Source of the DNA: Verrucomicrobiota bacterium
GTDB lineage: Bacteria > Verrucomicrobiota > Verrucomicrobiia > Limisphaerales > SXQI01
Direction: 5' to 3'
Length of the DNA stretch: 64,000 nucleotides
Assembly (NCBI GenBank): GCA_033762115.1
Contig: JANRLX010000067.1
Span: forward strand, 1 to 64,000
Part shown: positions 6,601 to 46,432 of the stretch, piece after piece
How the letters are laid out: each line of letters opens with the position of its first letter
Position numbering within the stretch: position 1 is the first letter of the stretch
Position numbers and translations under genes: made by a program
Notes under the pieces: model-generated
Database searches by the model: none
The model's input: the letters and a program-made list of their open reading frames with translations, nothing else
What the model was told of the DNA's origin: nothing

Positions 6601-7986
6601 AGCCGCTATCCCATCAATTTCTGTAAAATCGCCGCCTACCAGGATCGAGAAATCTCCAAGAATTTTGACGGCGTATATAGGACCATTGGCCCCACTTCCC
6701 GGATTGAAGGTGAGATCTGTTTGACCATTCGAAAGCAATCGAGCGATGCCTCCCCGGCCATGTCCATTGACTGATGAGAAACCGCCTCCGATCAAAACCC
6801 TTCCAGCCAGTGGGCCAAAGGTATAAACATCCACGGAACTGACAAAGTTATCAGCACCTGTGGAAGGGGAGAAAGTTGTATCCAAAGAACCGTCTGGACG
6901 CATTTTTGCAATCCTGTTCCGAGGCACAGAGTTCATGGCGGTGAATTCACCGCCGACAAAGGTCGATCCATCCGGCATTGTGGCGATGGAGAGCACTGTT
7001 CCGTTGGCGCCGGGGTTCAGGAGAAAAGAAGGAGAAGCATTATCCGGATTGTAAGTAATATCCACCGCCCCACCAGGAAGTGCAACATTGGTTCCATTTT
7101 GCGCCAGCAAGGTGACGATGGTAGCCGATATTTCTCCTAGAGAATAATTTATGGTTGTTTGTTCGTTCGCGGCATTGGTCGTGGTCACTGAACCTTGCGG
7201 ATTGGACAGACGCACAGCGAAATCTTCATTAAATTCATATTCAGTAAGGTTGGTTTTAATCAATGGGATGGTGATCGTTTGCTCTCGTTGTCCCGGTTCG
7301 AAGGTTAGGGTACCAGAGGTCGGACTATAATCAGTGTTCTCGTTTGCTATATCGGAGCCAGGGCGAATTCCAGAGTCTAACGGCTCTCCTGAGTCATCCA
7401 CGAGAGTTGATAGATCCACAAGCTCGTAATCGACGCTCACGCCAGATACACCATCTGGAACTGGCGATAAGAGCACGACCTTAATGCTTATATCGCCTGG
7501 CCGATCAGGAAAGTTGTAGTAGCTCTTTTCAAAAATGAACTGAAAATTTGTAAAGGCTGGGATGGTCAGGAAAAACGAATTCGTCTCCAGCGTTGGAGTA
7601 AAACGGGGGTTCTCGTTGGTGGCAACGCGAGGATTGATCAATTTGAAAGCTGCAGTTTGACTATTTGTGGATGGCCTCGCTGAAATCTGGATAAGGTAGT
7701 TCGTTCCGGATTGGTGGTCCCGCATTGCAACTTTGTTCGTGAAAGAGGAAAGAAACGTAACATTGGTTGGCGCCACCATATCAAAGTTGATCAAGCCATT
7801 GGCTGGCAAACGAGTGAGCCCAACTTCATATTGAGTATCATAAGGGCTGAGAAACCATTCGGAATGCGTGAATGCAACGATGTTTTCGTCCTGCGCCTTG
7901 GATACGGAGATTGAAATCAGCAAAAATGCCAGCAGGAAAACCGCTCGCAGAAAGGTCATTTTAAAGGTTCGGACTAGCATAAACAA
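670..7986 (-). CDS. Giant secreted surface protein: about 8 Calx-beta domains, three blocks of delta-60 (DUF5122-type) beta-propeller repeats, C-terminal ...FYRV domain
   Basis: Signal peptide; repeated 'QPDGKIxxGGxFT..G..R.RIARL..DG.LD.TF.PG.GA.G.V' blades; 'DY....GTLTF.PG....I.I.I..D...E.NE.F.V.L.NP' Calx-beta motifs. Exact start codon uncertain. Confidence 0.9.
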   Translation of the reverse strand: MFMLVRTFKMTFLRAVFLLAFLLISISVSKAQDENIVAFTHSEWFLSPYDTQYEVGLTRLPANGLINFDMVAPTNVTFLSSFTNKVAMRDHQSGTNYLIQISARPSTNSQTAAFKLINPRVATNENPRFTPTLETNSFFLTIPAFTNFQFIFEKSYYNFPDRPGDISIKVVLLSPVPDGVSGVSVDYELVDLSTLVDDSGEPLDSGIRPGSDIANENTDYSPTSGTLTFEPGQREQTITIPLIKTNLTEYEFNEDFAVRLSNPQGSVTTTNAANEQTTINYSLGEISATIVTLLAQNGTNVALPGGAVDITYNPDNASPSFLLNPGANGTVLSIATMPDGSTFVGGEFTAMNSVPRNRIAKMRPDGSLDTTFSPSTGADNFVSSVDVYTFGPLAGRVLIGGGFSSVNGHGRGGIARLLSNGQTDLTFNPGSGANGPIYAVKILGDFSILVGGDFTEIDGIAAPGIARLFSNGTLDLSFNPGFGFDGPVFALDAERASSITYTNSASGTNNTTLNQLVDIGAVGGQITIRYNLFDDLDRFQIFQGNTLVFDTGITNTIITVTNADQTTYETNTFITTNLFFGPGSSTQLRFVVSNTNETANWNIQASISPAANGRIIVGGDFTSVDGQVQQSIARLLANGTPDPTFDPGLGVHGQVLSVSLDSANRIIIGGDFTEVNSKSANSLARLNADGSLDETFSSGSGVDGIIQTVKYIAGRDELYIGGTFTVYNGSHRLYLARLLSNGSVDPTFLDTIQNAYAGFPLPNGVAPTVFDGSIRAINHDRTGLLVGGFFRRVGGGFFREEVHSRQNFARLSDAASTIYSPGLVEFASAEFGSDEAGGDLGAPVIRTLGITGSILVYGSTFEGSATIGRDYTPVTNSLIRFDDSNAQTLFIPIFDDEEIEGNETFGVELDSLLGGFTLGGQVILSAPGFGRNSEAIVTIVEDDQSPAVLNIAETEIDTDESSGTVTIRVTRSGNTGTSGQVAIRTVTTSPNGAASGSDFVAINLVSSFAPGQTSRTFTLQIRNDEFVEPDETFRVEIFNPSSGFILGTNSVALVTIIDNDYLPGRINFASTNFNVAENNGFATVQVRRSGGSVGVLSVEYRTEDGPFPTGTSVPFDYTETAGVLVWNDQETTPKTIQIPISNDSIVETSEQFSLILFNPSQPDALGSRSNSTVTILEDDGYGQFSFGVDRYIADENGTSAGIMVIRRNGTSGEAAVTFQAQPGTALPNIDFVPVTNLLTFQPGEVSKIVYVPILNDSVSDSNRTVNLQLRNPVTGTLGALTNALLTILDDEQLNIPAGDVEFDFAADVDDIVYSLLIEGENGPGEARKIILGGQFRTVENQSRRGLARINDDGSLDSTFARDIDFDGPIRAMLFQGTNRIIVAGAFENVDGLPRRSMARVTRSGAVDSTFSIGAGADGPVYTLGELVISTNPLISKVVVGGGFLSINSIQRAGIALLNEDGTVDLTFNPGSGVQGTVFALAVQPDGKIIIGGDFTSVGGTPQSGIARLNSNGTIDTNFNAGLGVAGTVRAIKLQPDGKILIGGLFNSVSDVPFNSIARLESTGALDSTFNPGPGVDGPVYALDLQPDGKIIVAGDFTKFGEASQNRILRLNPNGTLDTSINFGSGANGFIAAVKIQSDRRIIVGGNFTKINDIPRSHFARLFGGSISGSGEFEMALPTINVNESGTNAIVTIRRRGGTEGNASVSYVLSGESAFPGSDYIETNATVEFLSGEASKTINLLLLDDNIAEQDESFLVTLTNAAGASIISPRQPFTRVIIVSDDSLVSFAQTQYSASEGALGNFITIRVVRTGKTLEPVTVVYSTVGGSATAGVDYVSQTGTLTFQPNQENQFFTVNILGDESVEGNESVTLRLDEVIGNGSLGLRTATLTIYDDDFAPGVLSFENGLLISEGSGTASVVVRRESGVTGAVSVDYIITPLTASTDDFSASSGTLTLIDGQASQSIPVQITGDSAPEGNESFLVELTNPTGGAMLGNSVLLVTIVDDDFGAGSFDQTFNIGNGADGAIAAVKIQPDGKLVIGGDFDAFNGFSAPGVARLLPNGSIDNSFLAGGGAAGSVFTVDTAPDGKVAVGGGFTTFDGAVRNRVSLLSTNGFLDPAFFKSAGINGPVYAVAVQPDGQIIVGGSFSNPSPNLIRLNVDGSHDVSFDVEGGAKGAVRSLLLQPDGKILVGGSFTNIAGTTRRGFARLLSSGRIDPVFATGSGANGTVFDIARTEGGNILLAGEFTSVNGTPRNRVARLEQNGAVDTTFTPAAGPNGTVLAVAVQQDGKVLLGGEFSSVTGTNRTRIARLLNTGALDTTFDPGSGADDSVLDIHVQADRQILVAGAFFTLNGFPSPGIGRLNGDLDPAHTEITITNVVITAQGAISFGFLTETGKNYQIQGSTDLEQWTTIQPVSGTGSTTTFSETIGAIGTHKFYRVMLVP

Positions 7987-8882: not shown

Positions 8883-11800
8883 TTAAGGAGCGACTTTGAC
8901 CCGATAATAACGCCCGGAACTGCTTGATTGAAGAGAGTGAGGCAAGGTGACGGCCTGACGTTGTCCACCTGAATGAGTATAGGTGGTGACATTATGCCAG
9001 AGAGTTCCTCCGTTGAGTTGCAGATTATCAGTATATTGCAAAATGTAAGTGATGGATGGGGAAGCACTGAAGGTGACCAGGGCAGTGGTCCCTGCGGATG
9101 TTTCCTCAAAGGCAACGCTCAACAAGCGAAGCTCGGTGAGTTGATTGTCGAGAGGAAAGTCATCCAAACCATTGGCAATGCCATCCTGATCGGAATCAAT
9201 GATGCGGCTTTCGCGAAGAGATCTGTTAAGGCGTTGGCTGGTTCCGTCAAGCCGTGCGACATCGACTGAACTGTTTGGGCCAACTGCTTCAGGAACCCAG
9301 ATCAATCTGCCATTACCGAATTGTCTGCCGTTCAGAATTTCAGCAGTCACTCCCGGATTTGTGGAAACCAGATCAGCATAGTAGATGTCTATGTTGGCAT
9401 CCAACGTGAGGCCCTGGTAAATGTTTGTAATCCTGAGGTTTCCAGTCAGATTGGTTGATTGAGCCAGCCATCCGGTGATCTGCAATAAATCAACGTAGAT
9501 GGCTCGGTTCGGACCCGCTCCATGAAAAGCATATCTGGCCTGTTCCTCCCCACCTAAGATCAAATGGCCAATGGGCGTATTGGTTCGGAAAGCGCCTGGC
9601 AAAGGACCGACATCCGGCGCGGCCCAGGTATGGTGAGAAGTAAAGAACTTACGGCCCGCAGACTCAATGCGTGTACCCAGGAGTGTTCCCAAGGGAGCAA
9701 CACGGGTCATGTTAAAACCATTGCTTGAGCGCCAGATATTGGGAGCGGCCAGTTCCAAATCCTGAATGGAACCAGTGACATCGATGTTAATGGCACCACC
9801 CGCCAAAATGCGGTGATTGGAAAATTTCAGCACGTTACCGGCGAGTTCAACATCTCCGCCAGTTGTGAAAATGCCATCTTCGATTTTGCCCACTTCCGCA
9901 TTGATTCGAATTGGTCCAATGCTTGGAATGAATGCATTGGTAATAAAAAAGCCAAAACGGTTACTGAAGATGAGTGTTTCAGCCTGACCGGAACGAATGT
10001 CCCCCCGATTCTCGAAATATGAGCTGTTAATCAAATGGCTGAAGGCGGTCATGGTTCCGTCATTCACGAAATTTGTGTAGCGGATTCCATCCTGGTATCC
10101 GAAGTCGCCGAGCCCGCGAATAGCAAGAAACCCTTCCTCTGTAATAGTGAGACTTTTCAAGGTGGGCACGTTCGTGCGCCCCCAAGCGCTGGTGGAGAGG
10201 GTAATGTCACTATCAATGGTTACATTTTCACCTCGAAGTTCGAAGATGTTCGAAATGGACATGTTATTACGCAGGAAAATGTTTTCCGCCCTGGCAGTAA
10301 AACGGTCAATCACGACCGGCTTGAAGGTGATCAACCCCGCAGCGTCCACCAATGTGATGTGGTAGGCCACGTTGATTATATTGGTCACGAGGGTATTGGT
10401 CCCATTCACCACGTTGGTGACGATTTGCCCGGTTTGGTTTGTCCATGCACTGCTCCACAACTGAATTGCACCGTTGAGCCGCTCGACCGTTTCACGGGTC
10501 AGGTTTTCGACGCGTAATGGACGGTTATTGTCTGTTGAACCAAGCGCAAAACTTACATTTTCAACATCGATCACACTGTTGGAGTTCCCCAGAAGATTAT
10601 CGGTATTGATCGAGACGAGCCCTTCACCTCGAATGCGAGTACGTGTGAGATCAAGATTTGTAGCGACAATTTCCACCCGGCCAGGGAAGTTGGTGACGGA
10701 GAGGCCTGGAACTGGTTGAACTCTTTGAGCCATGCTGTCGATTTCCGCTGCGTAGGCAGCGTAACTGGCATTGGTAATGACAATGTTCGACATTGAAGGA
10801 TCAAAAAAGAATGTGGGGGTGAGGAGGGCGTTGGCTTCAAACCCAAAATCGTAAACACAAGGTTTGCTGCGAGCTATGACATAAGTGGCAGGCCTGAATC
10901 CAGCATACAAAACATTTGGGATGACATTGAAGTTGGTTCCTTCCGCCAGCTGGTCCACGATATAAAGCGTGTTCAACTCAGGTTCTTCGGTGATCGCATT
11001 GGTTAAGACAGCTGCAAGTTCAATCACAGGGGTTAGGAAGCCGTTATTGTTTGGTAAATCTCCATTCGGAAATGTCAGCGGGAGAAAACGGACATCAGGA
11101 AAGACCCTTGGGTCGCTGGTTTGCACAAACACAGCCTGGCGGATTACATTCGTCCCGTTAACGAGGTTGGTGAGAATAAAACCAACACCGTTTTGAATTT
11201 GAACAATTTGCCTGAAACCTCCCAGAGCATTTGTCACTGGGTGCGATGGCGATACCACTGAGGGAGAAAGGTCCTGCAGTAAGAAAGGAAGAACCAGGTT
11301 TGTTTCAGTCCCCATGCCCCAGAAAAGATCATAAACCCCGGTTTCCGGGAAAAAATTGGATTCACTGAGAAAAAAGGAATAAAGACCTGGATCACAATCA
11401 AAGAAAAATCCACCAAAGGTGCCAGCCCTTGCAGATCCAACGCGATCAACAACAATTTTGCTGTCCCGAAGCACCACGTTGTTTCCACGCAAGCGGATCA
11501 GCCCGGCGGGCCCTACAGCGATGGTGCCCTGATTTTCCAGCGTATCAGCATTGATTCGAACTCCGGAAAATTGCGATTGAAACGTGTTTACCAAAAATGC
11601 ACCTGAGTCGCCACCGGTCCTTAAAATGGATCCAAAACTATCAAGGGATTCCAGAACTCCGATTTGAGTATTGATGAATCTTTGTGCGGGAGTCCGCATT
11701 CCGGTTTCTGGATCAACGGTGTCCAACTCGAACCCGATATTGGCCTGCATAAGACCGTTGTTGGTAAAAATTCGGGTATTTTGTGTGTCAAATGGAACTG

Positions 11801-11978
11801 TTGAGCTAGAAAGGATCGAAAAAAGGCCGTTGTTGACGAATACTTCCGCATCAACGTTCACATTGGTGGCGGTGCCGTTGTTTACATAAATCGGCGCGGG
11901 TTGAGCCAACAGTGGGAGGGATGCCAAAACCGAGAAAATAACTGTAATGACGCTCTTCATGTTTATCAGGGCCTTCAC
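8883..11978 (-). CDS. Secreted beta-helix-like (adhesin/haemagglutinin-like) protein with a DxDxDG motif and C-terminal ...YYRV domain
   Basis: Signal peptide (SLPLLA-Q); beta-strand 'F.N.G.I' repeats (FVNNG, FTNNG, LENQG, FVNDG, FENRG); DSDQDGIANGLDDFPLD; C-terminal YILQYTDNL...W...GRYYRVKVAP. Confidence 0.75.
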   Translation of the reverse strand: MKALINMKSVITVIFSVLASLPLLAQPAPIYVNNGTATNVNVDAEVFVNNGLFSILSSSTVPFDTQNTRIFTNNGLMQANIGFELDTVDPETGMRTPAQRFINTQIGVLESLDSFGSILRTGGDSGAFLVNTFQSQFSGVRINADTLENQGTIAVGPAGLIRLRGNNVVLRDSKIVVDRVGSARAGTFGGFFFDCDPGLYSFFLSESNFFPETGVYDLFWGMGTETNLVLPFLLQDLSPSVVSPSHPVTNALGGFRQIVQIQNGVGFILTNLVNGTNVIRQAVFVQTSDPRVFPDVRFLPLTFPNGDLPNNNGFLTPVIELAAVLTNAITEEPELNTLYIVDQLAEGTNFNVIPNVLYAGFRPATYVIARSKPCVYDFGFEANALLTPTFFFDPSMSNIVITNASYAAYAAEIDSMAQRVQPVPGLSVTNFPGRVEIVATNLDLTRTRIRGEGLVSINTDNLLGNSNSVIDVENVSFALGSTDNNRPLRVENLTRETVERLNGAIQLWSSAWTNQTGQIVTNVVNGTNTLVTNIINVAYHITLVDAAGLITFKPVVIDRFTARAENIFLRNNMSISNIFELRGENVTIDSDITLSTSAWGRTNVPTLKSLTITEEGFLAIRGLGDFGYQDGIRYTNFVNDGTMTAFSHLINSSYFENRGDIRSGQAETLIFSNRFGFFITNAFIPSIGPIRINAEVGKIEDGIFTTGGDVELAGNVLKFSNHRILAGGAINIDVTGSIQDLELAAPNIWRSSNGFNMTRVAPLGTLLGTRIESAGRKFFTSHHTWAAPDVGPLPGAFRTNTPIGHLILGGEEQARYAFHGAGPNRAIYVDLLQITGWLAQSTNLTGNLRITNIYQGLTLDANIDIYYADLVSTNPGVTAEILNGRQFGNGRLIWVPEAVGPNSSVDVARLDGTSQRLNRSLRESRIIDSDQDGIANGLDDFPLDNQLTELRLLSVAFEETSAGTTALVTFSASPSITYILQYTDNLQLNGGTLWHNVTTYTHSGGQRQAVTLPHSLQSSSSGRYYRVKVAP

Positions 11979-11980
11979 TG

Positions 11981-14506
11981 TTATGGATTCGCCACGGTAT
12001 TTGTGAACACACGATTAGCCAAGTCCTGAAGTGAGAGGTCTTGAGGGTAAACTATAGGCGGTCTTGAACTTCCGTCAAATGACCCCCAGGTGAAAGTTCG
12101 CTGAGCATCTGCTTCAGTGATAAAGCCGGGAAAAATATTGAAATAGCCTGGTCCCACTTTGTTGAAGGTAATCGTGACTTGCGGGGTAATAATACCAGGT
12201 CCGGCCGCCTGTCCCCCTTGGCCTTGCGCGCCATTGTTAATCCACCCTGATGTGTCAGTGCGAGAAATAGAAACAGGCTGCGCGATATCAGTGAAAGTCC
12301 CCAAGTCACGTGCTGAGAATAAAATATCGGGGCCGGTGCTGACTCGCCGGAATCGTTGCGGCACAAAAGTTCCATTCGTCAGAATGGAAACGGTGTAATC
12401 ATTGGTAATGGTGATAAAATTTTCATTCAAAATATCGTTGGTGTTAAACCGACGTAAGCGGATTGAGTCGATACCCGGTCTCAGCGCCAAGAGACTACCT
12501 GCCTGAAAGTTGATTGGAAATGCCTGACAAAACTCACTTTCGAATGGATAGATGATTTCCCGCCTGACGCCCTGCCCTGTAATGACGTTCGTCAGGTCTG
12601 AAATCACGTTCGTCAGGAAAACGATTGTTGAGAAACAATTCGTTGTGACAAACAGGTTGGGATCATTGATTGTAATTGTTCCCAGAGGAAATGGCGATGA
12701 AATGATCTGCGTTGTTACTATGGGAGCCCCAAGCAAACTGAACTCAATGGTCCGCAAAATCACGTCAGGATTTGGGCCTCCTGGCGGGAAATTTGTCGTC
12801 ACATTTCCGAATTGATAACCAAACTGAACGACAAAGTTCGTTGTCAGGTTGGTGACCACAAAACTGGAATTGGCGTTCGCAATTTCAATGGGATAAGCCG
12901 CGTAAACGGTGTTTGTGAAGGTCAAAACCAAATCCTGTCGAACCAGATCACCTGTGATGCTGTTGGTGGTAAAGAAGAGAAAGTTGGTTGTTCGAACCAG
13001 ATTTTGCAGAGTGAGGAGCGGGTTGCCAAACTGATCTGTGAAACTATAACCCACGAGGTTGGGGTTCTGGGTCCGATCAAAGATGTAAAAGCCGCCACTG
13101 GGGAAATTCGTCGGAATAAAAGTGCTGGTAATATTGGTCCTAAAAATCGTGAACGGAGGAGGGGGTCCCCAAGGTTCGGCAATTAAATTGGTGGTTAAAA
13201 TTTCAAGGAAGGTCGTTGGAGAGACATAGTTCGTGACCAGATTTGCGTAAGTATAGGAGTAAAGAGTAATGATGTTGGTGACGTAATTGGTTACAAACCC
13301 GAAATTGGTTTGATTGGGTGGTCCCCAGGGATCAGGAGGGAGATTCGTTAAAACAATGCTGTCAACTGAAACCAATAATCCGGGTCGGGTGTTGGTGCTC
13401 GCAATTAACAGAGTGGGATAAAGAGCGCGCAACTGCGCTGGAGAACTGGTCAGGCTTTGCTGGGAAAAGAGGAAAAGATCAAGATTACTGATGATCTGGA
13501 GATTGGAGAAATTGGTAAATAATTCACCTTGAGCAATGTTCGTCACCACAATATTGGTGCTTACAATATTTGAAATAAATACATTACTGCTGATGATTGT
13601 GAGATTGGAGTAAAGAGCCAGTAATGCAGTGGGAGAACTCGTCAGGGTTTGACTGGAGAACAGGGCCAGATCAATGTTAGTGATGAAAAGAGGGTTCCCA
13701 AAGTTTGTGGAAGCAATTAATGTTCCTGGATAGACATCCTCCCGGTTAATGTTGTTCCGCTGGTAAATATATTTTAAACCTGCGACGTCGTCGCGAGTCA
13801 GCGCACTAAAGAATTCCCCAGTACCTAAATTGGCAGCGAAGAGGCCGTCAACTGTGCTGGAAACGGCAGTGAACGAGATGGCATTTGCATCAACAGGAAA
13901 CTCAATTGCATCTGTAAAATCGGGTGCAGTAAAAAAGAAAAGCCCGTAAGTGTACCTAACATCATTGACATAATTGGTGGGCTCCGGATTGCCGAAAGGA
14001 TCGAAATTCCGCTGAATTACAAAGTAATTAGTGGATGGGGCAGGATCAGTAATTTGATTTCTTAAGGTAAAAACATACCGCTCGGCTGAGGCGAGGCCGA
14101 ACTCTTCCGTCAACGCTCCCATGGCCATTGATTTTAAATCGATCAAACCGAGCGCTTCAGCGGTGAAATTGACCCGCTTGGTACGGACAGGAAAATTACT
14201 GACGTCCAGTGCAGCCAGATTGGTCATTCGATTAAACTGGGCAATTGCCTTTTCAATTTCGGCAACTCCCTGAACACCGAAATAGTCAACGAATGCCTCG
14301 TCAAACCCGTAATAAATGACCGGCAAATTCCAGCGATATTCCTCACCCAGATTTTTGGGGCCACCAATATCTGTGTTATTAGGATTATAACCCAATGCAG
14401 GGGTTTGCCATGCTTCAAATGGTCCAAGCAGCGCGAAGCCATGCGCGGTGAGAGATGCACCGAAGACCAGGAGAGCAGCAACTAAATTTCTGAAACCTTG
14501 AAGCAT
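11981..14506 (-). CDS. Secreted Thr-Asn-rich protein with a degenerate matrixin/metzincin-like N-terminal domain
   Basis: Signal peptide (LTAHG-F). DLKSMAMGALTEEFGL sits where HExxHxxGL is expected, and LTRDDVAGLKYIY matches the terminal matrixin helix. Internal repeats follow. Confidence 0.7.
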   Translation of the reverse strand: MLQGFRNLVAALLVFGASLTAHGFALLGPFEAWQTPALGYNPNNTDIGGPKNLGEEYRWNLPVIYYGFDEAFVDYFGVQGVAEIEKAIAQFNRMTNLAALDVSNFPVRTKRVNFTAEALGLIDLKSMAMGALTEEFGLASAERYVFTLRNQITDPAPSTNYFVIQRNFDPFGNPEPTNYVNDVRYTYGLFFFTAPDFTDAIEFPVDANAISFTAVSSTVDGLFAANLGTGEFFSALTRDDVAGLKYIYQRNNINREDVYPGTLIASTNFGNPLFITNIDLALFSSQTLTSSPTALLALYSNLTIISSNVFISNIVSTNIVVTNIAQGELFTNFSNLQIISNLDLFLFSQQSLTSSPAQLRALYPTLLIASTNTRPGLLVSVDSIVLTNLPPDPWGPPNQTNFGFVTNYVTNIITLYSYTYANLVTNYVSPTTFLEILTTNLIAEPWGPPPPFTIFRTNITSTFIPTNFPSGGFYIFDRTQNPNLVGYSFTDQFGNPLLTLQNLVRTTNFLFFTTNSITGDLVRQDLVLTFTNTVYAAYPIEIANANSSFVVTNLTTNFVVQFGYQFGNVTTNFPPGGPNPDVILRTIEFSLLGAPIVTTQIISSPFPLGTITINDPNLFVTTNCFSTIVFLTNVISDLTNVITGQGVRREIIYPFESEFCQAFPINFQAGSLLALRPGIDSIRLRRFNTNDILNENFITITNDYTVSILTNGTFVPQRFRRVSTGPDILFSARDLGTFTDIAQPVSISRTDTSGWINNGAQGQGGQAAGPGIITPQVTITFNKVGPGYFNIFPGFITEADAQRTFTWGSFDGSSRPPIVYPQDLSLQDLANRVFTNTVANP

Positions 14507-14509
14507 ATA

Positions 14510-16423
14510 TTATCGGATGCGGATCACGCGGTAGTAGCCCAAGCTGGTCACACCAGTGGCAGGGATTGAATCAGTATGGCCAACGGCAAACCGTGGCAGG
14601 CCTACATTTTCCCAAACAGGCGTATTGAGGTTTTGATTGGATTGAACCTGGTAGAGCAATCCAGGCTGGGTGTTCCAAACCAATCGGAAACCTTGCTCAG
14701 TCAGCTGCATCTCCGCAGCAAGCACGCTTGCAGGATCTGTCGGGTTGGTCCCGGCAAGAAATTCCTTGTGGTTGGATGCGCCATCTCCATCAGAATCAGC
14801 AGTTGAAGATGGCCATTTTGCACTTTCCAAACCCCAATAAACCTGCTGCCAATCATCTGGAAGGAAATCATCATTCAAATCCTCACCCCAGGTTTTTCCC
14901 ACGCCAGCGTCTGACATTGGCGAACGACGGCCATCGCTCAGCTGATAGAGCAACCGGAAGGAATGTTCACTGCCAGGAGCAAGGCCGGTGATCGTGCGGG
15001 TTTGGTTGGTCAAAAGAATTGGAGTTGCGCTGCCATCAACAAACAATTCAAAGTGGTCAATTTCCAACCCATCATAGACTGGCCATGTCACGCTGAGACG
15101 GCTCTGACTCAAGGCAGAAACGTACGGTGCCGAAGGGACAAGCAAGGGCACTTGGTCCAGCGTTTGATAGAAACGCTGAGCGGCGATATCAAAACCGGAA
15201 TTCAAGCCACTGAATGTTGTCCACGCCACCACGAAGCGACCTGTTTCATCGCTCCCAACAGTTGGGTGCATTTGTTTGCTGATAACGGTTGTGTTGACGC
15301 GAAACTCGTCTCCGATAGGGTCGGCACTGGAATTCAGAAAACGGCCATAAACACCTTCCTGCGACCCATCCTGTTCAAAGCTCATCCAAGCCAGCAAAAG
15401 GTTTCCACCACTGTTGGCAATGGCGGGACTGATCTGGGCCATTGACCTGGTTTGATTAATCACGCGAGGGGGTGTGATGGCAGTGCCATTCAGGGAAAAA
15501 GAAGCTGCAACAATGTCCCAGGCATTGGCGTCACCACCTTCTTTGATCTCTGTCCAAGCCACCACGAAACGGTTGAGTCCAGTCGGGGCGATTTTTGGAC
15601 TGGAAGCGAGATTATCCGTGCTGTTGAGCCTGAATTCATCGCTCAATGGATTACCGGCCTCATCAAAAAAACGGGCATAAATATCCACACTTTTTCCATG
15701 ACGTTGTCCTTCACTGATCCATGAAACGAGAATGCGGCCATTCGGAAATGCGGCAACAGAGGCGGAACGTTGATTTAATAGGTAATGTTGATTGATGCGG
15801 AACTCGGGGCCGGATTTGATTCCTGTCGAGGAAATCAACTGAGCAAATACGCCGCTCATGCTTCCATCCTGTCCCCGCGCACTCCAAACGACGATTGCAC
15901 CGCCATTGGGGAGACTTGCCAAAGAAGGTTCGATCTGTTCAATGGCAGCATTTCCACTGATCTGAAAATCCTGGGAGGTAAAAATCCCACCTGATCCAAG
16001 AATCCGGCCGAAAATTCGTTGCTGTCCAAATTCTCCACCCTGCCAGACGAAAAGTGTCGATCCATCCAACAATCTGGCTGCCTGTGGATTTTGCTGGTCC
16101 CCTTCTCCGATGCTGTTCACACGGAAAGAGGATTGACCCCCGGCAAAGGTTGGGGTCAAACGTCGAGCGCTGATCCCCATACCATCGCCATCAGCGACAT
16201 TATCCTCGTATACCAGCACACCTCCGGTCACATCAAGGGCGAGCACGGGACGGACCTGATCGCCTTGTGAGGAGTTTCCAATGAAATATTCGGTCCCTTC
16301 CTTTAACAGTCCGGGACTCGCTGAAAACGCCAAAGGGGCGAGAGCGCATGTGATGGTTGCGCTGATAAAACAGCGTCCAATTTTGCGCCACTTATCTTTG
16401 GTCGTTAAGAAAAGGAAACTCAT
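14510..16423 (-). CDS. Secreted protein: propeller-like repeats, FN3-like domain, DxDxDG motifs, C-terminal ...YYRV domain
   Basis: About 7 repeats of 'EF..N......Q..P.VA....G.FVVAW'; FN3-like SQSRLSVTWP...ITGLAPGSEHSFRL; DSDGDGASNHKEFLAGTNPTD; GLLYQVQSNQNL...W...GYYRVIRIR. Confidence 0.8.
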   Translation of the reverse strand: MSFLFLTTKDKWRKIGRCFISATITCALAPLAFSASPGLLKEGTEYFIGNSSQGDQVRPVLALDVTGGVLVYEDNVADGDGMGISARRLTPTFAGGQSSFRVNSIGEGDQQNPQAARLLDGSTLFVWQGGEFGQQRIFGRILGSGGIFTSQDFQISGNAAIEQIEPSLASLPNGGAIVVWSARGQDGSMSGVFAQLISSTGIKSGPEFRINQHYLLNQRSASVAAFPNGRILVSWISEGQRHGKSVDIYARFFDEAGNPLSDEFRLNSTDNLASSPKIAPTGLNRFVVAWTEIKEGGDANAWDIVAASFSLNGTAITPPRVINQTRSMAQISPAIANSGGNLLLAWMSFEQDGSQEGVYGRFLNSSADPIGDEFRVNTTVISKQMHPTVGSDETGRFVVAWTTFSGLNSGFDIAAQRFYQTLDQVPLLVPSAPYVSALSQSRLSVTWPVYDGLEIDHFELFVDGSATPILLTNQTRTITGLAPGSEHSFRLLYQLSDGRRSPMSDAGVGKTWGEDLNDDFLPDDWQQVYWGLESAKWPSSTADSDGDGASNHKEFLAGTNPTDPASVLAAEMQLTEQGFRLVWNTQPGLLYQVQSNQNLNTPVWENVGLPRFAVGHTDSIPATGVTSLGYYRVIRIR

Positions 16424-16464: not shown

Positions 16465-17055
16465 TCAGGGCTGACCAGGTTCGATTGGTTTCTGGGTTGG
16501 AACAGTGTTTGGGTCGTAAGGAAGATTATTTTCAGGGTGGACGCGGTTACCAGCTGGATCGATGATTGTTGGAGTGACAAAGACAACCAGGTTTTTCTTG
16601 CTGCTACTGGAGGATTCGCTGCGGAAAAAGCGGCCCAAAAGTGGAATATCTCCCAAAACAGGAACCTTGTCTTTGGTTTTGGTCACGTTTTCAGCAATCA
16701 ATCCGCCCAAATAAATGGTCTGGCCGTCCCAAACGACTGCGGTAGTGGTCACTTGTCGAACACGGAAACGGGGTAACGGAGTTGCCTGAACTGGTTGGTT
16801 TCCGACAACAGTCTGGAATTGCCGAGCGGAGTCGGTGTCATACCCGAGGAATTCCGTCAAAGTCGGCACGATGCTCATCTGGATGGTATAGCCATCAGCA
16901 GAGACGTAGGGAATCACGTCCAGAACCGGACCAAAGGGAATTTGCGCAGGCACCGGAGTCACCGCTGGAATCACCTGGGGTTGTTGCACCACCTGAGCAT
17001 GCAGAACAGTTGTAAGCACTGCTGCAAAGGCCAATTTGAAAATTTGACGCTTCAT
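16465..17055 (-). CDS. Secretin C-terminal half with its own signal peptide
   Basis: MKRQIFKLAFAAVLTTVLHA-Q, then GPVLDVIPYVSADGYTIQM, VWDGQTIYLGGLI, KVPVLGDIPLLGRFFRSE, NLVVFVTPTII: classic C-terminal secretin motifs. Confidence 0.9.
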   Translation of the reverse strand: MKRQIFKLAFAAVLTTVLHAQVVQQPQVIPAVTPVPAQIPFGPVLDVIPYVSADGYTIQMSIVPTLTEFLGYDTDSARQFQTVVGNQPVQATPLPRFRVRQVTTTAVVWDGQTIYLGGLIAENVTKTKDKVPVLGDIPLLGRFFRSESSSSSKKNLVVFVTPTIIDPAGNRVHPENNLPYDPNTVPTQKPIEPGQP

Positions 17056-17067
17056 GGTTTAAATAAA

Positions 17068-19353
17068 TTAGTTGCCTACACCAGTGACACCACCTGCAGC
17101 CACTGCACCACCGCCGCCACCAAGACCCTGAACACTCAAACCAACAATAATGGTCTGGGTGTCTTCAACGGCGATACGGGCTTGCCTCCCACTAACAGTT
17201 GTCACGCGAGGAGCGGAGAGAAGGTCAACCCCACCGCGTTGTTCCAATGCACGGATGACGACGCGAAATTGAGGATCGGTTAAAATGCCAGTGAGTGTTG
17301 CCACTTCAGGCGCGCTTTGCCGCAGGCCGGTGGTTAATAATTGATCTGAGGTTAAGCGGGTTGGCTGGGAAGGAACCCCAAAGGTTCCTGGGAAAACGCC
17401 GGACGGATTGGCAAAGGAGCTACTGTCACGGTATGAAGGAGCAGTGCCACCCTGGACTCCAATATCCCCGTTCCGCATCAATGTATTACCAAGGAACCAA
17501 TCGAATCCGACTGCTTTGCTGTCATTTTGGCCGATTTCAGCAAATTTGGCCTCGATGGTGACCTGAGGAGGGGTAACATTGAGGGCCTGGATGGCTCCCT
17601 CAATAATATCCAGATCACGCAGCGTCGCACGAACGAAAAGCACCCCGGTACGGTCATTAAAAAAGAGGGCTTTTTGTGGTGGCGTAGGTTGACCCGTGAA
17701 TCCAGCGCCTGCTGTGGTTGCGGTATTGTTGGTTGCAAAATCCACACCGGCTGCAATGAAGAAGTTCCTGACTTCATCCTGAATGTTGAACATTAAATTC
17801 GTGATCGTGACAGATGTGATTCCTCCGCCTGTTTGACCTCCGGCCCCTCCAGCACCACCGCCGCCACCCTGTTGGCCGTTAATTCCACCGCCGAAACTGA
17901 AGAGACCTCCGGGCCCTCCGCCTTGTCCATTCTGACCATTTTGCCCGCCACCTCCAACACCCCCGCCGCCGCCACCACCGCCTGCCCCGCCAGCTCCACC
18001 TTGCGCAGTCACAAAGCCCTGGAAAGGGTTAAACGTATAGCTCATACCCTCAAGACCCTGCTTGAATGTATTGGGATCAACCCGGAATGTGCGACTGTAA
18101 AGTTGATCCGGTTCAATCTGCCTTTGGCTGAACACGACTGCATATTCTTCAATGGAATATTTCAGCGCAATGTTCTGATTTTGACCTGAGCCAGGTTTAG
18201 CCACTCTGACTATTGCGTCCAGAACATCAGCCAGCCGGACATTCCGAAGTGGAGGATCCATCTTAACTGTAAAATCCTCAATGACAACAGGTTGATCCGA
18301 CTGCGGCTGCTGTCCAAGCGGCTGCCCGGTGAGTGGATCAACAGCGCCGGGAAAACCGCCGGCCGCAGGGTTAAACAAGGCCGGGCCTGGTTTATCCAAT
18401 TGCGAGCTGATAATAAAATTGATGCCGCGACGGTCTGGATCCCGTTTTCGAGCTTCGGCGCTCAATTCTTTAATGACTTCAATGAGAGGAATGTCTGAAG
18501 GCACCAGCCATTCATCGAGAATGATTCGGTCCAGCTTGGTGCTGATTGCCTGACGTCCCGGACTCGTATAAATGCGATTGGTGCGGGCATACGGATTGGC
18601 TTCAGGTAATAATTCCCGCTGAATGGGATTGTGCCATTTTTGTTCCACTTCGACCAGCATGTCCTTGGCAGCGATTTCCCGTTTACGGGCTTCCTGGGCG
18701 TAACGACGTTCCTTGATGAGATTCAGATAATAGAAGGCTGCACGATGTTCGGGATCCTCCTTGACGGCTTGACGCAGACGTTCTTCGGCTTCGTCCAATT
18801 TGCCAGTTTCCATCAAAAGGCGCGCATCCTGCACAAGGGTCGAAGTTTTCACGCGTTCCGCGCGAATTTCATCAACCCTTGCCAACTGCTCCCTGCTTGG
18901 AACGCGACCGGCTTGCTCGGAGATTTTTTTATCGAGAGCGGTCTTAAATTGTTGTGCTTCCAAATTTCTGGGATCGACCGTGAGAACTCGAGTTACCTGC
19001 TTGTCTGCTTCAGCCAAGTCCCCTCTTCGTTCTGCGCGGCGAGCGAGCTCCATTCGCGCTTCAGTCAATCCGGCCAGTGTTTCGGCACTTTCCTGGTCCA
19101 CTCCCAAACCAATTCGCTGGACGAGAGTGTAGGCATCCTCAAATTGACGGGCTGCCTCAACAAGATCGTTCTTTTGCCGAGCTGCTGCCGCTTCCGCAAG
19201 TGTGCGCCTTAATTGAATTGTATTTGCCTGGCGTTTCGCAGCTTCTTCACTGGCAGCCTGGGAGGCCAACTCGGCCGCGGATTGAGCATTGGCTCGCGGG
19301 GCTGAACCGCAAAGGGCAATGGCAATCAATATGGTAGTAACTACTTTAATCAT
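17068..19353 (-). CDS. Secretin N-terminal part (TPR-like region, N domains, first secretin strands); PilQ/GspD, Amuc_1098-like
   Basis: Signal peptide; TPR-like helices; Gly-rich loop; FNDRTGVLFVRAT (N3); PPQVTIEAKFAEI; ALEQRGGVDLLSAPRVTTVSGRQARI. Stops mid-domain. Confidence 0.88.
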   Translation of the reverse strand: MIKVVTTILIAIALCGSAPRANAQSAAELASQAASEEAAKRQANTIQLRRTLAEAAAARQKNDLVEAARQFEDAYTLVQRIGLGVDQESAETLAGLTEARMELARRAERRGDLAEADKQVTRVLTVDPRNLEAQQFKTALDKKISEQAGRVPSREQLARVDEIRAERVKTSTLVQDARLLMETGKLDEAEERLRQAVKEDPEHRAAFYYLNLIKERRYAQEARKREIAAKDMLVEVEQKWHNPIQRELLPEANPYARTNRIYTSPGRQAISTKLDRIILDEWLVPSDIPLIEVIKELSAEARKRDPDRRGINFIISSQLDKPGPALFNPAAGGFPGAVDPLTGQPLGQQPQSDQPVVIEDFTVKMDPPLRNVRLADVLDAIVRVAKPGSGQNQNIALKYSIEEYAVVFSQRQIEPDQLYSRTFRVDPNTFKQGLEGMSYTFNPFQGFVTAQGGAGGAGGGGGGGGVGGGGQNGQNGQGGGPGGLFSFGGGINGQQGGGGGAGGAGGQTGGGITSVTITNLMFNIQDEVRNFFIAAGVDFATNNTATTAGAGFTGQPTPPQKALFFNDRTGVLFVRATLRDLDIIEGAIQALNVTPPQVTIEAKFAEIGQNDSKAVGFDWFLGNTLMRNGDIGVQGGTAPSYRDSSSFANPSGVFPGTFGVPSQPTRLTSDQLLTTGLRQSAPEVATLTGILTDPQFRVVIRALEQRGGVDLLSAPRVTTVSGRQARIAVEDTQTIIVGLSVQGLGGGGGAVAAGGVTGVGN

Positions 19354-19385: not shown

Positions 19386-20183
19386 TTACTTATTCATCGC
19401 CACATTCGCTTTGATTGTCGTCTGTTTCTGATTGGATTTGGCGGACAATACAACTTCGTTTTGGTTGATTGCAACGATATTGTAGGATTCACCCCCGAAG
19501 ACAATTGCATCTTTGACCCGCATCCCTTTGCGGACGAGATTTTCCGGGTCATATTTGAGATCCGCTGAGTACCCAACAATTCTTCGATAAGGCTTTTCCT
19601 TGTTGATGATGATTGGTTCCACTTCATTGGGAAGCAGGATTACCAGTCCAGTGGGATTTTCGGGAGGCCCTTGAACCTGCTGGAGCGTGAAAATTGAGCT
19701 GTTTGAATTACCCGGTTGAACGAGCCGGGTCTGGGGCGTTGCAGGACGATCTGTTTCTTTCCGCAATGTAATTTTGTAACGGATATTGGCACCAGTGCCG
19801 CTGATTTCATCCAGAGACACAGTCATGTACAAAGGTTCAATGGCGGTGACATCCAGCGCACCGAGACCCACCTCATTTCCGGATGAAATCTTGATCAATC
19901 CTCCGTCGGGCCTTTTTTGCCAACGCACCGGATTAAAAAGATTGTGCGAACCGGCAAGTTCAAATTTAACCGGGCGTTCAGTTTTTTGAAGAACAAGGCG
20001 GTTGGAAGAGAGATCAATCGGTGGGAAAGGTTTCGGCTTTCCACCGATCAATTGATCTTTCCGAGCTTCTTCCTTTTGCCGTTCCTGCGAAACCTTGACG
20101 GGCATCAACGCAGCAGCAGCGGCAAGGCCGAGCAGAACCAGGCTGAGAATGAGCTTCTCGTAATGTTTTTTAAGGAACTGCAT
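19386..20183 (-). CDS. Amuc_1099-like pilus/secretion assembly protein (PilP/GspC position)
   Basis: N-terminal KKHYEKLIL plus a TM anchor, HNLFNP, beta-rich C-terminus; lies directly before the secretin as in the Akkermansia Amuc_1098-1101 cluster. Confidence 0.65.
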   Translation of the reverse strand: MQFLKKHYEKLILSLVLLGLAAAAALMPVKVSQERQKEEARKDQLIGGKPKPFPPIDLSSNRLVLQKTERPVKFELAGSHNLFNPVRWQKRPDGGLIKISSGNEVGLGALDVTAIEPLYMTVSLDEISGTGANIRYKITLRKETDRPATPQTRLVQPGNSNSSIFTLQQVQGPPENPTGLVILLPNEVEPIIINKEKPYRRIVGYSADLKYDPENLVRKGMRVKDAIVFGGESYNIVAINQNEVVLSAKSNQKQTTIKANVAMNK

Positions 20184-21156
20184 TTAAATTCAGTAAAGGG
20201 TCAAGCGGTGCATCTTTCGGACGTAAGCGAACCGAATCAAACTGAAGAGTGAACCGAAGCTTATTCTCATCCAGAAATGTCTGCAAACCTCTTCCCGTTG
20301 GCTGCCTGTTGCCTCCGGGAGGTGGCATGACCGTTGGTTGAGGGCCACCATAACGGTTTGGAAAGGCTGGTCCATAGCGATTTGCCTGAGGATTGAGCAT
20401 AGCAGCAATCGCAGCTGACGGGGCTGAAGGGGGAGCGGGGGCCTTATCCACCCCCACATTCTTTACAATAAAACATTGCTTACTGTTGCAAAAGCCTTCC
20501 ATGACACGGGCCAATTCAGAACTAAATCCCTGAAACGTCACTTCGTACGGAGTGACGATGGCGTAATTGTTTGTGACGGCTTTGCGTTCTGTAATGAATT
20601 CGCCACCCACATCTTCGGGGGCCACAGGCACGCGACGCAGTTTAATTAACGCATGAATTTTGGCATCGTACAAAATTCTCATGATGGTCCGAATATCACC
20701 CAACTGCGCAGCCAACCCTTGTAATTCCTTGAATTCGACTGCGGTTTTTTGAGCGCCAAATGTAAACCAATAGTCGGGCTCAGGTAAGCTGATACCCATC
20801 AGCTCCGCTTCACGCCGCATTTCGGTGACCGAACGATCCAGCAAAGCGCGAAATTCCTTTTGAGTAATATTTGTGGGAATTTCCGGGCCCTCGAGGTGTT
20901 TTCGGAGTTCGTCTCGAAACTTCTCAAGCTTCTTATGTTCTTCGGAAGCAAGTTCAACGTTGTTGACCCGATCTGTCCCTGGGTGAATCGGACGATTCAG
21001 GAGTTCCTGAAATGAAGCTGTCTGGGCATCCAACTCACCCGTGACAATTTCATCTTCCTTGATTTTTCCGTAAAGGAAGTAACCCGCAAAGCCGAGGAGA
21101 CCCAGAGCGACAACGCCGGTAATTACGAGACCTAAATTCCGTTTCAGCCAGACCAT
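20170..21156 (-). CDS. Amuc_1100-like (PilO-like) assembly protein
   Basis: N-terminal TM, coiled coil, PYEVTFQGFSSELARVM...FIVKNV PilO/GspM-like core; position between the PilM-PilN fusion and the Amuc_1099-like gene. Confidence 0.7.
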   Translation of the reverse strand: MVWLKRNLGLVITGVVALGLLGFAGYFLYGKIKEDEIVTGELDAQTASFQELLNRPIHPGTDRVNNVELASEEHKKLEKFRDELRKHLEGPEIPTNITQKEFRALLDRSVTEMRREAELMGISLPEPDYWFTFGAQKTAVEFKELQGLAAQLGDIRTIMRILYDAKIHALIKLRRVPVAPEDVGGEFITERKAVTNNYAIVTPYEVTFQGFSSELARVMEGFCNSKQCFIVKNVGVDKAPAPPSAPSAAIAAMLNPQANRYGPAFPNRYGGPQPTVMPPPGGNRQPTGRGLQTFLDENKLRFTLQFDSVRLRPKDAPLDPLLNLNAVP

Positions 21157-21162
21157 ATCCAG

Positions 21163-23034
21163 TTATAGCTTCATGGGAGACTTCAGTTTGAGCGTCATGC
21201 CAAACGTAAACGTCTCAGCAGAACTATCAACCTGTTCCAAATCACCAGAAAGTTTCGTGCCATCTGAATCAAATAATGTGCTCTCCTTGAATTCCTCCTG
21301 AACTAAAAAAGCGAGATTTCCATTCGCGGAACTGTCTCCACCCTTATTCAGGTTCACCGCACGAAGCTTCATGTTAATCGTGACCAGATTGGTATTCGCC
21401 GGGCCTTTAGGTTTCACTGGGGCCGCGGCCGATTCTCCTGTAGTGCCACCCGAGCTTCCACCGGGTATCAAGCCGTATCGTTTCGCCAACTCTGGATTTT
21501 GCAGCATGTACATCAAGGCCTGTGCTGAGAAAGTTGGGCCTGAAGAAACCTGTTCCTCTTCAGTGGGGATATCATCTTGGGCAACGGTACCAAATGTCTC
21601 AACCCATACTCCGACTTCACGGCCAGGCCCTGTGGCTTTATTTTCCACATTCACGAGCAGCTTACGCATTTCAGCCAATGCTTCGGCCCAAAAGAACCGA
21701 TCGTTCAGGTATTGTGCCAGTTGATCCACTTCAGCCTGGGTCTGATTTATTTTTCCTTGCTGGGCGTCCAATTGTTCCGCTTTTTGCTGCAACGGCTGGA
21801 GCTTCTCGGAAAGAGACGCAAGAGAGGCTTGTTTAACGGCGATTACTTTTCCATAAAACCAACCGTAGGCGAATACAACCAGAATCAAGCTGGCTATTGC
21901 AGCAATAAAATAAGGCTTTTTCTGGTCAAAAGCCTGTTTTTGACGAATGCTTTTCGGGACGAGGTTTAACTCCACCGGACATTGCGCCATGTTGCGCAAT
22001 CCCAAACCGACCACTTCACCGAAACCGTGTGCCACTTTGGCCAGTTCTTCGATATCAATAGAAGGATCCAATTGAACGTTTCGGAAGGGATTAAAATATT
22101 CCACTTCAACATTCAATTTCTCCTGGAAAAATTGCTGAGTGTAAGCCATGACCGACCCGCCACCAGCGAGGAAAACCCGTTGCGGGACAGAGCCACCCTG
22201 CTGCTTGAAATATTGGATGGTTTGATTGACCTGGATGTGAAGCCGGGTCAACACCTGCCGGGCGATTTTGGAAATGGCTGCCTGGTGTGGGTTTTCCGGC
22301 TCTTCGTAAGCACCGCCCAAACTGACAAAGCCCTCATTTATCTTGAGTTCCTCAGCCTTTGCCCAAGCCATTTTGGCTTCCGCGACAAAGTCCTGGGTAA
22401 TTGCGTTTGCCCCGATGTTGATGCTGCGCGCGTAAACTTTTCCCTTTTCAAAAAAGAGGATATTGCTGGTTTTTGCCCCGATATCCAGGAGCATCGCACA
22501 ACCTTCCAAATCCCCGTAATTGAACCGGAAAGAATTGCATAACGCAGCAGGAGAAGCATCCACTAGTTGAACTCGCAAGCCAGCAGCGTCTGCAGTGCGG
22601 AACAAGCTCTCTACCACGTCCGATTTGATGGCCACAAGCAGAACTTCAAGTTCACCACTGGAGGTGCTGCCCATGATCTGGTAATCCCAAACGACCTCTT
22701 CCAATGGAAAAGGCACGTTTTGCTGCGCCTCATATTGAATGATCTGGGTAACTTTTGAAGTATCGACTGGAGGAAGCTTTACGAATTTGGAAAAAACATG
22801 AAATCCAGGGGCGCAGATATTGATCTGCTTTCCTTTAAATCCCCTTGTGGAGAGCAGTTCCTGGATGGCTTTCAGCAAGGCTGCTTCACGTTTGGATTCC
22901 TGAGATCCCTCAATTCCCAGGGATTTGATGCCGTATTGGCGGAGTACAAGCGCCGCTTCGGTTGCTTCGAATTCGGCAACTTTTACACTCCCGGCCCCTA
23001 AATCGAGGCACAAAAATGATTTGTTACTTAACAT
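21163..23034 (-). CDS. pilM: PilM-PilN fusion protein (Amuc_1101-like)
   Basis: LDLGAGSVKVAE, EAQQNVPFPLEEVVWDYQ, LLDIGAKTS, VFLAGGGS, NPF, GLGLR (PilM); then ELNLVP (PilN INLLP-like), a TM helix, coiled coil and periplasmic domain. Confidence 0.85.
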   Translation of the reverse strand: MLSNKSFLCLDLGAGSVKVAEFEATEAALVLRQYGIKSLGIEGSQESKREAALLKAIQELLSTRGFKGKQINICAPGFHVFSKFVKLPPVDTSKVTQIIQYEAQQNVPFPLEEVVWDYQIMGSTSSGELEVLLVAIKSDVVESLFRTADAAGLRVQLVDASPAALCNSFRFNYGDLEGCAMLLDIGAKTSNILFFEKGKVYARSINIGANAITQDFVAEAKMAWAKAEELKINEGFVSLGGAYEEPENPHQAAISKIARQVLTRLHIQVNQTIQYFKQQGGSVPQRVFLAGGGSVMAYTQQFFQEKLNVEVEYFNPFRNVQLDPSIDIEELAKVAHGFGEVVGLGLRNMAQCPVELNLVPKSIRQKQAFDQKKPYFIAAIASLILVVFAYGWFYGKVIAVKQASLASLSEKLQPLQQKAEQLDAQQGKINQTQAEVDQLAQYLNDRFFWAEALAEMRKLLVNVENKATGPGREVGVWVETFGTVAQDDIPTEEEQVSSGPTFSAQALMYMLQNPELAKRYGLIPGGSSGGTTGESAAAPVKPKGPANTNLVTINMKLRAVNLNKGGDSSANGNLAFLVQEEFKESTLFDSDGTKLSGDLEQVDSSAETFTFGMTLKLKSPMKL

Positions 23035-46416: not shown

Positions 46417-46432
46417 GGCAGTGGCTTAGGAG

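Follow-up and report, generated by a model that had tools for sequence, protein, structure and literature searches.

How can a secretin be formed if its barrel domain is encoded in two pieces? The question is raised by a pair of minus-strand open reading frames (ORFs) in a 64,000-nucleotide stretch of a Verrucomicrobiota genome (contig JANRLX010000067.1, positions 1 to 64,000; hereafter the window, to which coordinates refer unless another locus is named). The genome, denoted G000 below, is a draft metagenome-assembled genome (MAG) of 134 contigs. Secretins are giant gated outer-membrane pores that serve secretion of types II and III, type IV pili and the export of filamentous phage, and to our knowledge all those with solved structures are homo-oligomers of a single chain. 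In the window, an ORF of 761 residues (17068..19353) and one of 196 residues (16465..17055) follow each other in the same frame; the first terminates in LLSAPRVTTVSGRQARIAVEDTQTIIVGLSVQGLGGGGGAVAAGGVTGVGN and a stop codon, and the second begins with MKRQIFKLAFAAVLTTVLHA, a putative leader, followed by QVVQQPQVIPAVTPVPAQIPFGPVLDVIPYV. The junction reads GGC AAC TAA TTT ATT TAA ACC ATG, with a second in-frame TAA inside the 12-nt spacer. The initial annotation of this DNA had described just such a junction, with two in-frame stops in an AT-rich spacer behind a Gly-rich end of the first gene, and had proposed that two genes, both equipped with a signal peptide, encode one secretin; the ORFs, the profile matches of the two halves and the heuristically assigned leaders all agree with that proposal.

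The first gene (17068..19353, minus strand; the N-half) encodes a predicted signal peptide and a TPR region, together with periplasmic domains, N3-like ones among them, and the start of the secretin domain. Its 3' part encodes the first strand of the Gate 1 hairpin (ARIAVEDTQTIIVG, residues 725-738, 17140..17181, minus strand, placed by profile alignment to GspD) and then a Gly-rich C-terminal tail (LSVQGLGGGGGAVAAGGVTGVGN, residues 739-761, 17071..17139, minus strand), the first half of the Gate 1 loop tip. Gate 1 is a loop of the inner barrel whose copies meet at the centre of the pore and seal it. After the TAA stop (17068-17070) and the AT-rich spacer TTTATTTAAACC (together 17056..17070, minus strand), the second gene (16465..17055, minus strand, 196 residues plus stop; the C-half) encodes a signal peptide, the Gate 1 return strand and Gate 2, and its 3' part the last outer-barrel strands and a C-terminal tail. 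The mature N-terminus and the return strand (QVVQQPQVIPAVTPVPAQIPFGPVLDVIPYV) occupy 16903..16995 on the minus strand, as judged by alignment to fused relatives. The 12-nt spacer holds no clear Shine-Dalgarno motif before the C-half ATG, and motifs of this kind precede the C-half start in 7 of the 41 split loci described below.

Neither polypeptide matches the whole of the Pfam Secretin profile (PF00263), and the domain is complete only over both chains. Profile positions 1-35 are found in the N-half (residues 702-736, E 1.3e-5, 25.3 bits against a cut-off of 27.5) and positions 53-169 in the C-half (E 3.4e-30, 105.3 bits). The Pfam scan of the N-half also returned TPR_2/TPR_14 matches, and the GspD profile TIGR02517 aligns over its positions 280-465 with residues 541-744; the C-half in turn matches the C-terminal parts of the GspD, MshL and PilQ profiles. 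The two ORFs furthermore match both ends of NCBIfam NF042912, the profile of Amuc_1098, a PilQ-like secretin of Akkermansia muciniphila: the best stretch in the N-half covers positions 5-381 and is accompanied by a second stretch (220.2 bits), and the C-half covers 661-804 of 805 (121.4 bits). Since both scores fall below the cut-off of 750 bits, the pair is a relative of this family rather than an equivalog. In contrast to NF042912, whose 805 positions form one span, as for one chain, the window has two chains.

The same arrangement recurs in relatives, in which the initial annotation had advised searching for the split point. When 40 relatives were searched with the C-half, the sequence formed a separate frame of ~195-260 residues in 15 genomes, one of them G000, and lay within a frame of 900-1080 residues in most of the non-split genomes. 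The junctions of 30 fetched loci were read, and 15 were split and 15 fused; each split locus has its own stop codon, spacer and ATG, the relative frame of the halves being 0 in 6, 1 in 5 and 2 in 4. The split is present in 13 of the 14 genomes in the GTDB family to which G000 belongs; only G001, from another genus, lacks it. In a sample of the order (401 genomes), 339 genomes, including one flagged as unpublished (G317), gave a match at E<=1e-45, and 28 of the 150 matches listed out of 348 are of the split type, distributed over families f1, f4, f18, f80 and f25; 20 further regions were fetched from this sample for junction reading. A scan of genome contigs yielded 80 loci, of which 29 are split, 50 are fused and 1 is truncated by the end of its contig; many come from genomes already covered by the searches above. 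After loci with identical C-parts had been dropped from a total of 130, 104 non-identical loci remained, 41 split and 63 fused, with three loci (L047, L048 and L099) assigned as fused at the loop and one (L043) as split by hand after reading. Across the split loci the spacers range from 12 to ~73 nt, the halves stand in relative frame 0, 1 or 2, and the N-half lies directly upstream of the C-half in 40 of 41 cases, the remaining locus being truncated where its contig ends. At least four GTDB families share the split; the relatives are Verrucomicrobiota, Verrucomicrobia subdivision 3 and Limisphaerales MAGs, all uncultured. In a large protein collection, the C-half has 1490 protein matches of 107-343 residues at E<=1e-20; the best 120 all measure 172-220 residues, some of them being labelled 'general secretion pathway protein D'.

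Two irregular cases were encountered among the relatives. The locus L047 (G314:C68) is continuous over the gate loop and shows stops or a frame change further upstream, in the N3 and secretin region, an interruption that is probably a frameshift or an assembly error. Within the GTDB genus g30, one genome (G116, locus L045) has a divergent split form with 55% identity to the query and another (G037) a fused form of 932 residues with 67% identity, and neither has the other's secretin type at E<=1e-45, which suggests paralogy, gene transfer or incomplete bins.

Signal peptides were called by a heuristic that takes account of charge, Kyte-Doolittle hydrophobicity and the residues at -1 and -3, and not by SignalP. 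By these measures the C-half leader of the window (MKRQIFKLAFAAVLTTVLHA, followed by Gln; 16996..17055, minus strand) has the character of a type I signal peptide, with three Lys or Arg among its first 10 residues, a best 9-residue hydrophobicity mean of 2.33, and, around the predicted cleavage site, Leu at -3 and Ala at -1 before it and Gln behind it at +1. The predicted Sec signal peptide of the N-half (MIKVVTTILIAIALCGSAPRANA, followed by Gln; 19285..19353, minus strand), which was judged by eye from the translation, has a Lys at position 3, a hydrophobic core and A-N-A preceding the Gln. Among the C-halves of the 41 split loci, the residue at -1 is Ala (37) or Gly (4) and that at +1 is Gln throughout, Lys or Arg occurs within the first 10 residues in 40, and the best 9-residue mean has a median of 2.87 and a minimum of 1.91; the equivalent loop of 56 fused relatives has a median of 1.27 and a maximum of 2.26. 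The script set the cleavage site one 'AQ' too far in about seven rows and gave an over-long start in a few, so that leader lengths are rough, the counts at -1 and +1 being unaffected in kind. The leader sequences diverge widely while their signal-peptide properties stay, and a divergence of this sort, together with the loose selection described below, is typical of signal peptides.

The residue behind the cleavage site deserves separate mention. Gln follows the predicted site in both halves of the window (16993-16995 and 19282-19284) and in all 41 C-halves, including those of separately placed clades. An N-terminal Gln can cyclise to pyroglutamate, and at the start of the C-half this would take the charge off the new N-terminus at the gate. 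At the other free end, many N-halves terminate in Gln or Phe (…GFQ, …GVVQ, …GGF).

Both halves have been retained under selection, as illustrated by the ratio of non-synonymous to synonymous substitution rates (dN/dS), calculated by the Nei-Gojobori method for pairs within clades, many of which are saturated at dS and give no ratio. For the pairs with defined dS, dN/dS amounts to 0.02-0.18 in the core of the N-half (~220-245 codons) and 0.02-0.13 in the mature C-half (~171-181 codons), in consequence of which both halves are considered to be under strong purifying selection; relaxed selection, which would have spoken for decay, had been named in the initial annotation and was looked for here on both halves. 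The Gly-rich tail gives 0.07-0.41 and the leader 0.11-0.94, the highest of the four partitions.

The fused relatives indicate where in the fold the cut lies. Fused Limisphaerales orthologues (L016-L030, L044 and L049 among them) are 55-72% identical and have the same domain order, including a long Gly-rich Gate 1 tip, and differ in being single ORFs of ~890-1080 residues in which the loop lacks stop, spacer and leader. A Gly-rich stretch is present at the cut site in every relative, fused or split (19-41 residues in the split forms); in the fused forms ...TIVTGV precedes it and ...PFGPxLDVxPYV follows it, and it is within this stretch that the split forms are cut. The mature start of the C-half aligns with ...GS VVQQAQPLPVLQPQPVSIPTGPTLDVIPYV in the fused relatives, some of which read ...GS VVQQAQPLP..., with VVQQ after the tip. 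Because VVQQ thus occurs in fused forms also, the QVVQQ start is ancestral and older than the split, the leader having been placed before it.

A profile of 13 fused relatives, compared with the PDB, aligned the strand that precedes the loop with V. cholerae GspD ...ASFIVGEEVPVITGSTAGSNN; the GspD stretch at this strand reads ASFIVG(453)EEVPVITG, and the entries 5wq8 (wild-type) and 5wq9 (G453A) differ exactly there. The same search aligned the conserved C-terminal barrel strands with solved secretins at E 1e-28 to 1e-15. A plain phmmer comparison of a fused relative with the PDB aligned only these C-terminal strands and did not place the loop. In published work consulted as excerpts, the secretin gate is described as two hairpins inside the barrel and G453 of GspD as the putative hinge for gate opening (PMC7545093), and Gate 1 loops are described as reaching the pore centre, their centre-facing parts being the most variable, with the central 15 residues disordered in pIV and 90% of leaky mutations falling in the gate region (PMC8563730). 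An AlphaFold2 (AF2) model of one fused relative (L020; 383 residues, 13-row alignment) reached a mean predicted local distance difference test score (pLDDT) of 56.4 and contains a strand at 183-192, a loop at 194-207 with pLDDT <50 and a strand at 209-217. Its fold resembles the solved single-chain secretins (Z 10.8-12.2 against chains of GspD, 5wq8/5wq7; PilQ, 6w6m/6ve2; InvG, 5tcq; and pIV, 7ofh). In these, each a single chain, the Gate 1 loop is closed and of ordinary length; that of the window is long, Gly-rich and cut. As placed by these alignments, the cut is at the tip of the Gate 1 hairpin, in the Gly-rich loop behind the strand equivalent to that of G453. The 'variable loop' that the initial annotation saw between its two flanking motifs can thus be named more specifically as the tip of this hairpin.

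A prediction of the complex of N-half residues 500-761 with the mature C-half scored 0.53, compared with 0.00 for the best of three controls, with a partner pLDDT of at least 71 and a contact agreement between runs of at least 84%. The mark that it passes is reached by 116 of 157 solved complexes and by 2 of 215 mismatched pairs, and scores of 0.60 or less comprise only 18 of the 157 solved complexes and both of those mismatched pairs. Since halves of a known fold may pass by their likeness to solved secretins, little weight is given to this score.

Compared with known split secretins, the position of the cut is different. The initial annotation had held that secretins are normally one polypeptide; a published exception exists in the rhizobial Rhc type III secretion system (T3SS), whose secretin gene is divided into rhcC1 (N-terminal part) and rhcC2 (C-terminal part), lying apart, with a functional meaning that the excerpts seen of two papers give as unknown (PMC3574062, PMC3973906). 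RhcC1 (NolW) and RhcC2 resemble the present pair in forming a secretin from two genes in a manner conserved within a lineage. In pNGR234a, however, where a family search places the two genes ~12 kb apart, RhcC2 (475 residues) holds Secretin profile positions 1-169 entire and RhcC1 the N0 and Secretin_N domains, so that the cut lies between domains; that of the window lies inside the Secretin domain (profile 35-53), between adjacent genes of a pilus-like cluster. The window thus has neither a cut before an intact secretin domain nor a T3SS cluster, no T3SS families being found among the window genes scanned, from 670 to 31141. The exception therefore does not extend to the barrel or gate, and a limited phrase search of open-access text found no published secretin split internal to either; nor is a split form named in the titles and opening abstract lines listed for papers on Amuc_1098. 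The locus is a real, conserved and selected two-gene secretin cut at the gate tip; split secretins are known, and the gate-internal cut is what sets this one apart.

Several explanations would dispense with a two-chain pore. The genome is a 134-contig draft, and an error of sequencing or assembly could have interrupted a gene that is in truth continuous; an error, however, would not create a stop, an ATG and a hydrophobic leader of 20 residues, and 40 other non-identical loci from independent assemblies have the same layout with different spacers and frames, which leaves this explanation with a negligible likelihood. The two in-frame stops, in the same frame, could also mark a decaying pseudogene, in which a nonsense mutation broke the secretin while the pilus-like system was being lost. 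Such decay is hard to reconcile with a split that is kept over at least four GTDB families, with the low dN/dS on both halves at a dS near or beyond saturation, with a signal peptide maintained in 41 of 41 C-halves and with the intactness of the remaining genes of the cluster; the family-wide occurrence, the low ratios and the kept signal peptides largely refute it, and we consider it very improbable. The evolved fission that the initial annotation had preferred to an error is accordingly borne out by the 41 split loci among 104, the purifying selection and the 41 conserved leaders. Alternatively, since the ORFs of the window share a frame and stand only 12 nt apart, read-through or frameshifting might join them, the apparent signal peptide then being a hydrophobic insert in the loop. 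Against this recoding, two TAA stops would have to be read through, and the halves of the relatives stand in all three relative frames with spacers of up to ~73 nt, so that no single recoding rule fits. Furthermore, the N-terminal Lys and Arg, the hydrophobic core and the A|Q pattern are those of a cleaved leader, and the fused relatives have no hydrophobic insert in this loop (the median of 1.27 given above). Recoding is therefore regarded as a most unlikely explanation of the pair.

A further alternative accepts both products as real and denies that they still form one barrel, the N-half serving, for example, as a periplasmic or TPR scaffold and the C-half having another role or partner. Contact between the chains is itself a prediction, and the N-halves of two relatives have gained a C-terminal Peptidase_S74 domain, which indicates that the free end can evolve alone. 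However, neither half has a complete set of barrel strands, the genes are adjacent in 40 of 41 loci, and the strands on either side of the cut are both conserved and correspond by alignment to the two that make up a single hairpin in the fused relatives, so that we regard separate roles as improbable. Our preferred reading, to which we assign a probability of about 0.8, is a working two-chain secretin of a Verrucomicrobial pilus-like cluster of the Amuc_1098-1101 type. Several points weigh against it: the two-chain secretin and the pilus are predicted from genes, and the split genomes are all uncultured MAGs; the signal peptides were called heuristically; the NF042912 scores (220 and 121 bits) come nowhere near the equivalog cut-off; GspD's hinge glycine (G453) is not conserved in the family, a Glu standing in its place in the window; and the AF2 model is of low confidence (pLDDT 56.4) and represents the fused relative L020, not the window pair. 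As for the hinge, the mechanics of the gate may differ from the textbook case.

For a working two-chain secretin, the following course can be proposed. An ancestral single gene would have acquired, within the long Gly-rich tip of the Gate 1 hairpin, a stop codon and a short spacer, followed by a new ATG and the codons of a Sec signal peptide, and would so have been cut in two. Both chains, products of one operon, would pass through Sec separately, with a Gln left at the new N-terminus by signal peptidase, and would then pair by beta-strand complementation. In the pair, the N-half would supply the periplasmic domains together with the first strands of the outer barrel and that of Gate 1, and the C-half would complete Gate 1 with its return strand and add Gate 2 and the last barrel strands. 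The paired halves would build the usual multimeric double barrel, in secretins an outer-membrane ring of 12-15 copies, whose gate would be closed by free, flexible chain ends instead of closed loops; each subunit would contribute two, a Gly-rich C-terminal tail of 19-41 residues and an N-terminal segment rich in Gln, Pro and Val. Separate export, co-assembly and any effect on gating are what we infer from the genes, and the position at the gate tip would fit the altered gating that the initial annotation had put forward as a possibility. It is possible, if rather doubtful, that the cut is adaptive and not merely tolerated, giving twice as many free flexible ends as there would be closed gate loops; such a gate might open with no need of the usual hinge motion, or admit cargo that is wider or of another kind.

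The number of times the loop was cut was examined on two trees. A careful tree of 48 loci requires three changes and places the split forms in three starred clades, namely f1+f4 (14 rows), f80+f18 (14 rows) and G116+G039 (2 rows, nested among fused forms). A quick tree of 104 loci requires four changes, of which the starred branches force at least two; in it, the two large split clades fall in one group (support 89) with four fused rows, and L121 and the clade of L045/L046/L133 are placed elsewhere. By approximately unbiased (AU) tests, monophyly of the split forms as a whole was not rejected (p 0.183 for 48 loci and p 0.107 for 104 loci), and recurrent fission is consequently not claimed as shown. 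As far as sequence comparison can tell, 37 of the 41 split loci go back to a single old fission. L121 and L082 are cut a few residues earlier in the loop, and their mature N-termini resemble the loops of the fused forms nearest L121, which hints at separate fission events. With three to four changes on the trees and with the differing cut points of L121 and L082, this loop may have been opened on more than one independent occasion. If the cut is adaptive in the sense considered above, the pore centre would be a site onto which new domains, such as Peptidase_S74, can be grafted.

The two relatives that carry this domain are a separate observation. In L040 (L040:1818-2954, plus strand) and L072 (L072:76-1026, plus strand), the N-half does not end in a Gly-rich tail and runs on for ~130 residues, in which a Peptidase_S74 domain (above the cut-off in both, E 1.4e-9 and 5.3e-10) is joined by a coiled-coil-like end. 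Peptidase_S74, the 'chaperone of endosialidase', is a self-cleaving intramolecular chaperone. From its location on the new C-terminus, this module should come to lie at the pore centre.

The surroundings of the pair in the window are those of a pilus-like cluster. Directly upstream of the secretin, on the same strand, stand a PilM-like and an Amuc_1100-like gene, and the cluster resembles Amuc_1098-1102, the pili-like cluster of a member of the same phylum, in these Amuc_1100- and Amuc_1101-like neighbours and in the N-terminal TPR region of the secretin. The first gene of the cluster (21163..23034, minus strand) encodes a PilM-like (Amuc_1101-family-like) protein of 623 residues with a C-terminal extension (PilM_2, E 1.5e-35; TIGR01175 pilM, 156.6 bits against a cut-off of 133; NF045709, 485 bits against 650). 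It is followed by a gene for an Amuc_1100-family-like pilus-associated protein of 328 residues (20170..21156, minus strand; NF038287 over its full length, E 2.7e-16, 59.9 bits against a cut-off of 180) and, between this and the secretin, by a gene of 265 residues (19386..20183, minus strand) with no Pfam or NCBIfam family. A search of this genome with the C-half and the families found no second secretin of the Amuc_1098 type; the two other secretins present are single open frames of 678 and 876 residues on other contigs (G000:C77:31750-32742 and G000:C93:57039-57320). If functional, the pilus-like machine uses the two-chain secretin.

Directly downstream of the C-half lie three large genes on the same strand, of 637, 841 and 1031 residues (11981-16423 and 8883-11978, minus strand), and then coaE. 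A weak bacterial TSP3 repeat is the only family match among the three; leader-like segments stand at the start of the first two, and the 841-residue protein is rich in short repeats that contain Asn and Thr (…TNIV…TNF…). These genes may encode cargo or fibre parts of the pilus-like machine. Elsewhere in the window, a giant protein of 2438 residues (670-7986, minus strand) contains 19 DUF5122 beta-propeller repeats and 8 Calx-beta domains, and two adjacent T2SSE-family ATPase matches of PilT-like size (45571-47515, minus strand; frames of 365 and 404 residues) lie ~28 kb from the secretin. They belong to 12 such matches in this genome, two of which are inside the window.

The finding bears on how such genes are annotated, on how secretins can be engineered and on how they work. 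Annotation pipelines give the 196-residue piece the name 'general secretion pathway protein D', and pairs of this kind may be marked by them as broken genes. For engineering, the gate tip would be a permissive site at which split or tagged secretins could be made. Leaky secretin mutations cluster in the gate, and a natural split there offers a ready test of the part that covalent closure of Gate 1 plays in sealing and opening. A conserved split at the tip of the gate would show that the double barrel of a secretin assembles from two separately exported pieces.

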